From sequence record PV648359: a DNA stretch of 64,000 bases. One strand, written 5' to 3'. Made by a program: the position numbers and the translations under genes. Positions within the stretch are counted from its first letter, which is position 1. The number at the start of each line of letters is the position of its first letter. Below the pieces are notes generated by a model, which did no database searches, was not told the DNA's origin, and saw nothing but the letters and a program-made list of their open reading frames with translations. This document shows positions 47,472 to 48,943 of this stretch, in pieces. The DNA is from Escherichia phage LF82-1.

Positions 47472-47891
47472 TTATGCGAAAGCAGCCGGGCTATATTTTT
47501 TAATTTGGAATTCAGGAACTACCATGAACTGTCCAGCGAAAACGATGTTATAAAGCTTAACACCATCTTCTACCCAACGGTCGCTAATAAATCCAGCGAT
47601 TTGCTTAGTTTTCCATGGTGTTCCATCAGTTGCCGCAGCAATAGTGAATTCATGGTCTTTTTCAACAGAAACTGATCTGCATAGTCCCCATTTGAACGAT
47701 TTTTCTTCCGGTTCAATGAATTGGCTTTTAACATAACCAATGTTGCCATCAGCATCACGAACTTTAACTTCATTGCGACCAAAAACCGGATCACTTACAT
47801 AAAGAACTTCAACCAACTTACCAGCAACTTTAGAGCGAGAAGCATCTGATACGTGTACATAATCACCAATAGAGAGATTTGCAATATTCAT
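47472..47891 (-). CDS. hypothetical protein, tandem paralog family member 1
   Basis: Shared C-terminal motif D.WVEDG.KLYNIVF.G.F.VV. Confidence 0.5.
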   Translation of the reverse strand: MNIANLSIGDYVHVSDASRSKVAGKLVEVLYVSDPVFGRNEVKVRDADGNIGYVKSQFIEPEEKSFKWGLCRSVSVEKDHEFTIAAATDGTPWKTKQIAGFISDRWVEDGVKLYNIVFAGQFMVVPEFQIKKYSPAAFA

Positions 47892-47900
47892 AATAATTCC

Positions 47901-48386
47901 TTAAGCTTTACGAGGAGACACATAACGAGTGATTTCGGATTCTTTAACAACTCTGAAGTCACCTAAGAATACGATATTGTATAACTTTTCACCATCTTCA
48001 ACCCATTGGTCACTAATGAAGCCGCACATAGTATCAGTTTTGCTTGGATAACCGTATTCATCGATGAAGTCAAATTCTTTATCAGTCTGGAATTCAACGC
48101 CTTTGCAAAGGGCCCATTTGAACTGTACATTATGCTCTGTAGATTCAACTTTTTCTCTTGAAGCAAAAGCACTACTCACAGGCGTTTCCAAGAACTTTGC
48201 ACGAACATAAGCAAATTTGGTTTCCTGTGTCCCAAAACTAGGAATAATACGAACTTTTACCTCAGAATCTTCATCTTTAACGCCTTCTTTAAGTTGAATA
48301 CTTACAACTTCGACCAATTTTCCTGCGGCTTTAGAACGAGATTTGTTAGATACGCGAACGATTTCACCAATAATACCAAGATTCAT
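47901..48386 (-). CDS. hypothetical protein, tandem paralog family member 2 (start at internal Met after promoter)
   Basis: Same N-terminal (GKLVEV) and C-terminal (WVEDGEKLYNIVFLGDF) motifs. Confidence 0.5.
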   Translation of the reverse strand: MNLGIIGEIVRVSNKSRSKAAGKLVEVVSIQLKEGVKDEDSEVKVRIIPSFGTQETKFAYVRAKFLETPVSSAFASREKVESTEHNVQFKWALCKGVEFQTDKEFDFIDEYGYPSKTDTMCGFISDQWVEDGEKLYNIVFLGDFRVVKESEITRYVSPRKA

Positions 48387-48416
48387 AATTTCTCTCTCTT
48401 TGTTTAAATTGAATTC

Positions 48417-48446
48417 ATTATACTCCATCCATCCTTGGATATACAA
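48417..48446 (-). promoter_or_regulatory. T4-type early promoter
   Basis: TTGTAT, 18 nt (CCAAGGATGG), TATAAT. Confidence 0.5.
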
Positions 48447-48448
48447 CA

Positions 48449-48943
48449 TTAATTAAGGATATTAACCACAGCACTACGTGGAACTACACTAAAATCACCT
48501 GCATGAACAACGTTCAGAAGTTCAACACCGTCTTCAATCCACTGGTCAGTTACCCATCCATTTACTGGACCTGCGAACGGGCGTCGAATTGAAACATATT
48601 TACACAGCAAATCAGTAGGCTCAATAGGCTTAATCAGAGTACCGTACATACAAGCGATATCCATATCAATACAGATGTCTTTAACGGGTTCTACTTCTTC
48701 AATCAACAGTTCAAAGTCTGTGCTTGGAAGGGCGGTAGTAGAAATTGTACCATATGAATTTTTAATTTCTAAGAATAACCAAGGGCCTTCAGCTTGTTTG
48801 ATGAAGTTAACAATAGTGAAACTATTGCCTTGAGTGGCACCTAAAATTTCACAAAACTTTTCGTAAGCTCGCACTGAAGCACTGTACCAGTTGATTTGTT
48901 TTTCGTCTTTCAGGATGTAAGTAGCCGTAGTATTGATATTCAT
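48449..48943 (-). CDS. hypothetical protein, tandem paralog family member 3 (motB region)
   Basis: C-terminal WIEDGVELLNVVHAGDFSVVP. Confidence 0.5.
   Translation of the reverse strand: MNINTTATYILKDEKQINWYSASVRAYEKFCEILGATQGNSFTIVNFIKQAEGPWLFLEIKNSYGTISTTALPSTDFELLIEEVEPVKDICIDMDIACMYGTLIKPIEPTDLLCKYVSIRRPFAGPVNGWVTDQWIEDGVELLNVVHAGDFSVVPRSAVVNILN

Follow-up and report, generated by a model that had tools for sequence, protein, structure and literature searches.

Three tandem genes with a common C-terminal domain in Escherichia phage LF82-1: a probable MotB/MotB.1 cluster of the Mosigvirus type

Why should a phage carry, one behind the other, three genes whose products end in the same protein block? 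The question is raised by a stretch of 64,000 nucleotides (nt) of Escherichia phage LF82-1 (record PV648359; the whole stretch is referred to below as the window), in which an initial annotation singled out three consecutive open reading frames (ORFs) as a diversifying early-gene family of the motB/dexA region. The genes, named here C, B and A in the order of their transcription, and the domains of their products are as follows (aa, amino acids; pLDDT, predicted local distance difference test score):

48449-48943, minus strand: gene C, 164 aa, full-length MotB.1 orthologue, PHROG 2333
residues 1-84 of C, minus strand: N-terminal domain, predicted acidic beta-barrel with a helix
residues 85-108 of C, minus strand: linker, modelled with low confidence (pLDDT below 50 at 86-107)
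48452-48619, minus strand: C-terminal domain of C (residues 109-164), predicted MotB-type barrel, PTDLLCKYVSIRRPF...GWVTDQWIEDGVELLNVVHAGDFSVVPRSAVVNILN
47901-48386, minus strand: gene B, 161 aa, orthologue of T4 MotB
residues 1-68 of B, minus strand: N-terminal domain, basic, predicted KOW/SH3-like, SRSKAAGKLVEV
residues 70-85 of B, minus strand: linker, predicted disordered
47904-48122, minus strand: C-terminal barrel of B (residues 89-161), as modelled by AlphaFold2
47472-47891, minus strand: gene A, 139 aa, second MotB paralogue of the RB69ORF010c type
47475-47705, minus strand: C-terminal domain of A (residues 63-139), same two-domain plan as B with a short linker

We conclude, with a probability of roughly 0.8, that the three genes make up the MotB/MotB.1 cluster of a Mosigvirus and code for two-barrel proteins which share their C-terminal barrel and of which B would act like MotB of phage T4. 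Over a stretch of 1.8 kb the sequence of the locus is that of Escherichia phage LF82-2 (100% identity) and nearly that of the Mosigvirus Shigella phage Shf125875 (99.9%), and on these sequence identities the window is assigned to Mosigvirus, as an RB69-like relative of T4. In the annotation of Shf125875, whose notes cite RB69, A is labelled 'RB69ORF010c; similar to motB', B 'RB69 motB' and C 'motB.1'. All three proteins pass the Pfam profile PF17613 'motB', whose curated gathering cut-off is a whole-protein score of 25 bits, with 81.5 bits for A, 182 for B and 35.3 for C, the last matching the profile at positions 78-153 only. Among the PHROGs, B (E 3e-70) and A (E 9e-52) fall into phrog_1671 (MotB-like), and C, along its whole length of residues 1-164, into phrog_2333 (E 1.3e-82). 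B and T4 MotB share 58% identity over the full length (E 2e-57), the best match among all window and T4 proteins compared, while C aligns with the whole of T4 MotB.1 at 37% identity (E 9e-27) and also matches the BFVD entry P39415 (E 6e-10).

The genomic context agrees with that of T4 in that the three genes sit between dexA and cef, although motB.2 is at the opposite end of the cluster. B and T4 MotB have in common this interval, an early-type promoter ahead of the gene, the two-domain plan and the motifs SRSKAAGKLVEVVSIQLK and DQWVEDG.KLYN, but they differ in isoelectric point (pI; 5.6 for B, 9.2 for the T4 protein), and their C-terminal domains are 49% identical. The same two-domain plan is found in A, at 39% identity to T4 MotB, although its middle region is 22 residues shorter and its N-terminal domain is acidic. 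The gene for C lies directly upstream of motB, as motB.1 does in T4; C is set apart from T4 MotB.1 by its length of 164 aa, by a C-terminal barrel that is complete and by an additional segment in the linker, VKDICIDMDIACMYGTLIKPI. In T4 motB.2 precedes motB.1, whereas in the window motB.1 is served by its own putative promoter and the motB.2-like gene follows A. The motB region of RB69 (RB69ORF010c, motB, RB69p012, motB.1) has the same genes in the same order, and in its C-terminal domain B is 96% identical to the RB69 protein; in contrast, the N-terminal domain of B is T4-like (76%) and not RB69-like (62%), and motB.1, broken in the RB69 reference by two single-T insertions, is intact in the window.

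The three proteins match named T4 genes, B being MotB and C MotB.1, and A is the known second motB of RB69, an outcome which the initial annotation had itself named as speaking against its proposal. A comparison with dexA.1 and dexA.2, which it recommended, proved irrelevant, both being T4 genes upstream of dexA that are unrelated to A, B and C and absent from the window. Patterson-West et al. 2021 (PMC7827196) report two motB copies plus motB.1 in RB69 with a common conserved C-terminal domain, and describe MotB and MotB.1 as having the same conserved C-terminal domain and different N-terminal domains. A, B and C are thus already described, as second MotB copy, MotB and MotB.1, and the locus carries little weight as a discovery, since the family, the common C-terminal domain and the RB69-type three-copy layout are in Pfam, in PHROGs and in that paper.

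In order to establish how far the likeness extends, the three proteins have to be compared along their whole length. Pairwise BLASTP comparison gave 42% identity over 154 aa between A and B (E 7e-31), and E values of 9e-11 for A with C and 3e-10 for B with C; a profile-profile comparison of MotB with MotB.1 gave a probability of 98.9% (E 1e-17). With the ORFs at their annotated positions, these values and the PF17613 scores bear out the initial annotation as far as three tandem paralogues are concerned, and the C-terminal strings quoted there are found in all three proteins, where the core motif reads G-[FWY]-[IV]-[ST]-D-[QR]-W-[VI]-E-D-G-x-x-L-x-N-[IV]-V. In the C-terminal alignment, the homology spans the whole domain from the 'LCK.V' strand, well beyond the last 20 residues, and a hairpin is 14 residues longer in A and B than in C. 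A profile search of all six frames found exactly three copies of this domain in the 64-kb window. The GKLVEV string noted at the N-terminus of the first two members proved to be part of a larger likeness, given that A and B also have their N-terminal domain in common, including SRSK.AGKLVEV; the motif SRSKAAG.LVEV is present in A and B and absent from C, whose N-terminal domain differs. S16, R17, S18, K19, A21 and G22 are nearly invariant across 55 sequences.

What kind of domain is shared was approached with AlphaFold2 models built from the family alignments (55 sequences for B, 33 for C), which reached a pLDDT of 79.8 for B and 79.3 for C. Each of these two proteins is predicted to consist of two confident all-beta domains (pLDDT 85-92) joined by a linker with pLDDT below 50. 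The C-terminal domain of C (pLDDT about 90) is modelled with strands at residues 116-119, 127-137, 140-147 and 150-155, a 3-10 turn and a last strand at 159-163, and its N-terminal domain with strands at 8-11, 42-49, 55-61, 67-73 and 80-82 and a helix at 26-37. In the shared C-terminal domain a 3-10 turn separates the fifth strand from the first four, and the block first noticed corresponds to strands 2 to 5; this domain is the most conserved part of the protein, with 22 invariant columns across 33 MotB.1-type proteins. In these models both domains are small beta-barrels of SH3/Tudor-like topology, which is new here, and they disagree, with the caveat that they are predictions, with the published suggestion of an OB-fold for the C-terminal domain. 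In PMC7827196, HHpred assigned the MotB C-terminal domain to the OB-fold family of cold-shock proteins, and DNA binding was considered possible for either domain; the modelled domain displays neither the beta1-beta2-beta3-helix-beta4-beta5 barrel nor the OB-fold structural matches expected of that family. A sequence search of the PDB with both family profiles returned chance matches only (E 0.3 or worse). Members of the SH3-like/Tudor/chromo/KOW superfold (the tandem Tudor of 53BP1, the Tudor of PHF19, the chromo domain of MRG15, the KOW domain of Spt5) share 6-20% sequence identity with the MotB-family domains, and the likeness is one of fold only, which does not imply an aromatic cage or methyl-lysine function.

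For the N-terminal domain of MotB.1, Kim et al. 2025 (PMC12152347) propose an LSm-like fold, a bent antiparallel sheet of five strands, and a family with GoF and Frd.2. Comparison of this domain of C with the GoF of the window by hhalign gave no match (E 0.3), and GoF and Frd.2 are not among the named BFVD matches of C. Within the linker of C, at residues 93-106 (48626-48667), lies a motif, DMDIACMYGTLIKP, which is modelled with low confidence and is absent from T4 MotB.1. A motif of this type stands at the extreme N-terminus of the homologues P0158, P0177 and P0149, and Klebsiella and Enterobacter phages have it as D.DVAS.Y in their KOW-plus-MotB.1-type proteins; a role as a short linear motif for interaction is conceivable.

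What, then, would such proteins do? In two papers (PMC6070864, PMC7827196), T4 MotB is described as an early, non-essential nucleoid-associated protein which binds DNA without sequence preference, whether unmodified or carrying glucosyl-hydroxymethylcytosine, co-purifies with H-NS and StpA, changes the H-NS footprint, up-regulates part of the H-NS regulon, roughly doubles the burst size and is toxic in E. coli. Because B is the orthologue of T4 MotB its function is most likely the same, and by analogy B would coat and compact DNA early in infection and relieve H-NS silencing. From charge and conservation, we hypothesize that the N-terminal barrel is the main nucleic-acid contact in A and B, and that the shared C-terminal barrel is a module for a common partner or for self-association, which would account for a C-terminal barrel that stays nearly unchanged while the N-terminal domains swap. 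A and C would be accessory versions giving other N-terminal specificities to the same complex; the C-terminal domain occurs in fusion with no fewer than three N-terminal types. The net charge of the N-terminal domain is +3 in B, +5 in T4 MotB and -2 in A, and that of the C-terminal domain -4 in B, -2 in C and +1 in both A and T4 MotB; C as a whole has a pI of 4.5.

Several points weigh against this assignment. DNA binding, co-purification with H-NS and StpA, toxicity and the approximately two-fold effect on burst size are known for T4 MotB only. Since B as a whole is acidic (pI 5.6) where T4 MotB is basic (pI 9.2), and since the N-terminal domain of A is acidic, with a net charge of -2, tight non-specific DNA binding may not transfer unchanged from T4 MotB to B or A. 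The partner-binding role of the C-terminal domain is read solely from its charge and conservation, and the published view lets either domain bind DNA. In addition, T4 motB.1 deletion and amber mutants were without phenotype under laboratory conditions (PMC12152347).

A different answer would be that A, B and C are redundant non-specific DNA binders acting through a shared OB-fold C-terminal domain, the triple copy serving dosage or different DNA states. The HHpred assignment in PMC7827196, where either domain was considered able to bind DNA, speaks for it, as does the fact that A, B and C have no part in common other than the C-terminal domain; the predicted barrels disagree with the fold it calls for, and we regard it as doubtful. 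Conversely, the C-terminal barrel might not be the DNA-binding part at all but an SH3/Tudor-like docking or oligomerisation module, through which MotB with its KOW-type, DNA-binding N-terminus, A, and full-length MotB.1 with its LSm-like N-terminus would assemble on the same partner or with one another; in this strong form the proposal is tentative and rather unlikely. An SH3/Tudor-like, non-basic model of the C-terminal domain nevertheless changes which domain to mutate first in the search for the DNA-binding surface.

If the cluster is a MotB/MotB.1 cluster, why are there three copies and not two? In loci collected from IMG/VR and GenBank, those of Mosigvirus carry three copies of the C-terminal domain in the order C-B-A, while those of other Tevenvirinae carry two, a MotB.1-type gene followed by MotB. 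The initial annotation saw here a diversifying host-interaction function, which can be read as an arms race in which diversifying selection has fitted every copy to its own, fast-changing host target, and this variation in copy number between genera would fit such a view, as would two further observations: in Mosigvirus B occurs in two allele classes (96-99% against 75-82% aa identity), between which the synonymous divergence (dS) of B is about 0.6 as compared with about 0.1 in the flanking genes, and N-terminal domains have been exchanged between lineages. However, the ratio of nonsynonymous to synonymous divergence (dN/dS; pairwise, Nei-Gojobori, gene-wide, the window against ten Mosigvirus loci) is far below 1 in all three genes, at 0.02-0.24 for A, 0.10-0.29 for B and 0.02-0.35 for C; goF and the GoF-like ORF have similar values, dexA and dda lower ones. 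Selection on A, B and C is purifying, and a gene-wide sign of diversification was not seen. Moreover, the shared C-terminal core is nearly invariant, and the dimorphism of B amounts to a swap of the N-terminal domain, which in the window is 76% identical to T4 MotB and 62% to RB69 MotB, next to a C-terminal domain 96-100% identical to the RB69 type; the two allele classes exist because this domain was exchanged. We therefore consider an arms race quite improbable: the early-gene family in the motB/dexA region stands, with its tandem paralogues, T4-like phage and early-type promoters, but diversification by selection (dN/dS 0.02-0.35 overall) does not.

Exchange of domains is also seen outside Mosigvirus-type B. 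The homologue P0016 joins an N-terminal domain 98% identical to T4 with a C-terminal domain 78% identical to that of window B (the Mosigvirus-B type), P0045 an N-terminal domain 97% identical to T4 with a C-terminal domain 81% identical to that of window A, and P0055 an N-terminal domain 89% identical to RB69 B with a C-terminal domain 89% identical to that of window A; the latter two belong to T4-type two-copy loci and hold the A-type C-terminal domain within their sole MotB. Judging from MotB sequences compared across the window (47901-48386) and the loci L003, L006, L007, L022, L023, L026 and L030-L033, the N- and C-terminal domains reassort independently among T4-like phages, and we propose that the family evolves under purifying selection, through tandem duplication and through recombination where the two domains meet. 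A neighbour-joining tree places A outside the MotB orthologues as a whole, grouped with the chimeras, and A is consequently not a recent copy of B.

It could still be argued that A is a redundant duplicate heading for loss, with no function of its own, as it has no promoter, a shortened linker and an acidic N-terminal domain, and is a separate gene in Mosigvirus only. Against this, A is intact and exactly 139 aa long in 10/10 Mosigvirus loci with the low dN/dS given above (0.02-0.24), and its type of C-terminal domain serves the single MotB of some T4-type phages (P0045, P0055), which makes impending loss very improbable indeed.

With respect to the wider distribution of the C-terminal domain, a hidden Markov model (HMM) search of 1.84 billion cluster representatives returned 28 clusters, 26 of them genuine (101-251 aa), and no wider family beyond these 26; P0255 and P0259, which are repetitive surface proteins, were rejected as spurious. 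The named homologues come almost all from T4-like phages of enterobacteria, and the few records with bacterial names are attributed to phage contamination by Patterson-West et al. (PMC7827196).

How the three genes might be expressed was addressed through their upstream sequences, in which two candidate promoters are found:

48975..49003, minus strand: early-type sigma-70 promoter before C, TTTACA-17-TATAAT, a sequence match only, with repeat copy 1, CCAAGGATGGTTGGAGTATAAT, at 48975-48996
48417..48446, minus strand: second, weaker early-type promoter before B, overlapping the end of C, with repeat copy 2, CCAAGGATGGATGGAGTATAAT, at 48417-48438

Taking GTTTAC (-35) and TATAAT (-10) with a 17-nt spacer as the T4-type early promoter, the site before C matches 11/12 of the sigma-70 consensus with a 17-nt spacer, and the putative promoter before B has, in this window, a perfect -10 and a weak, degenerate -35 (GTTGTA). 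The two share a near-identical 22-nt core, CCAAGGATGG[T/A]TGGAGTATAAT, which in the window occurs on the minus strand at 48975-48996 and 48417-48438 only (with up to 3 mismatches allowed, 2 matches against 0 expected), so that their description as near-duplicates was correct. The repeat is kept at both sites in the Mosigvirus loci which cover both; the copy before C has at most one substitution in every Mosigvirus locus covering the site, and the copy before B varies, with a -35 of GTTTTAC (L007, L024) or a -10 of TATAGT, TATAGC or TATAAA. A begins 9 nt past the stop of B and has no promoter of its own.

At 48449 an ATG that shares bases with the stop codon of C (TAATG) would give B a 182-aa form, extended over 48387-48449, and many database entries annotate forms of 172-186 aa. 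The longer start (175/182 aa) was rejected as the main product, given that the extension crosses the promoter of B itself and is closed by a stop in RB69, so that the extended form is probably not a conserved product, and that T4 MotB aligns with the 161-aa start.

The cluster belongs to a block of minus-strand genes transcribed in the order dda, dexA, C, B, A, motB.2-like gene, cef, goF, 39.2, GoF-like ORF and large topoisomerase subunit. Its immediate neighbours are:

49697-51010, minus strand: dda
49010-49687, minus strand: dexA
46888-47412, minus strand: motB.2-like gene, 174 aa, matching T4 motB.2

Plus-strand ORFs in the region are all of 56 aa or less, and there is no evidence that any of them is a gene. 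Between A and the motB.2-like gene a strong minus-strand hairpin (47417-47461; -23.9 kcal/mol, z -5.1) holds the Shine-Dalgarno sequence GAGGAG of the latter in its 3' arm, and an early-type promoter-like site (GTTTAC...TATTAT, 47439-47466) lies inside it. Owing to this arrangement, read-through transcripts could mask the ribosome site of the motB.2-like gene, and those starting at the internal promoter would be without the 5' arm. A comparable combination of hairpin and internal promoter is known from T4 genes such as e, soc and 49. An Rfam scan of 45400-51200 on both strands produced only a Y_RNA match at 48701-48794, which was below threshold at 26 bits (gathering score 38; E 0.047) and which we took as chance.

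At the far end of the block, a 141-aa ORF adjoining the topoisomerase gene (45583-46008; RB69ORF005c) matches the GoF PHROG phrog_622 (E 6e-20), which suggests a second GoF-like protein of this phage, in the place of T4 39.1. Its likeness to the N-terminal domain of C is weak (phrog_2333, E 7e-4; hhalign E 0.0025 at a probability of 12%; HMM E 0.068).

The intact gene C leads to one last question, namely why MotB.1 is shorter in the T4 reference. In that genome (NC_000866 / AF158101) motB.1 encodes 119 aa ending in GWVTDQWIGRWR and a stop, and the rest of the domain, EDGVELLNVVHAGEYSVVPRSAVVAILN up to its stop, is found in the next frame, one extra G having shifted the frame inside the conserved DQWIEDG motif, as seen on comparing L001 (T4 NC_000866, 2722-3151) with the window (48449-48943), L004 and L027-L029. 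T4 'wild' (KJ477684) has one G fewer (ATTGAAGAT as against ATTGGAAGAT) and encodes 143 aa, three further re-sequenced T4 records annotate a motB.1 of 432 nt, and ten T4-like records align at 600/601 bases. As the window gene is intact and the re-sequenced T4 genomes encode 143 aa, the 119-aa form is, on these sequences, a one-base-insertion artefact or a strain variant, and the natural protein has a complete MotB-type C-terminal domain.

Likewise, its two single-T insertions leave the RB69 reference motB.1 (L003, NC_004928, 3377-3873) as two ORFs, one of 132 aa and RB69p012 of 29 aa, while the window and the seven further Mosigvirus loci that span the whole gene have it intact. In PMC7827196 the RB69 motB region is described as containing motB twice, motB.1 once and a 29-aa peptide, and by sequence this 'Category 3' peptide, RB69p012, corresponds to the out-of-frame tail of motB.1. 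The single-base insertions truncating motB.1 in both reference genomes are new here, the window providing the intact form. In the 2025 study of MotB.1 (PMC12152347), amber constructs of T4 motB.1 followed NC_000866.4 coordinates, plasmids were gene-synthesised and a 13.8-kDa protein was reported; a mass of 13.8 kDa matches 119 aa and NC_000866.4 is the record cited, so the truncated form appears to have been used. Should the C-terminal barrel turn out to be a docking module, nucleoid remodelling would be coupled to a second activity, and nothing could be concluded from the negative results published for T4 MotB.1, since the protein assayed was synthesised from the T4 reference sequence and lacks most of that module. 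The intact form of motB.1, the origin of the 29-aa RB69 peptide and the SH3/Tudor-like model of the C-terminal domain are of practical value for work on the takeover of the host by T4.

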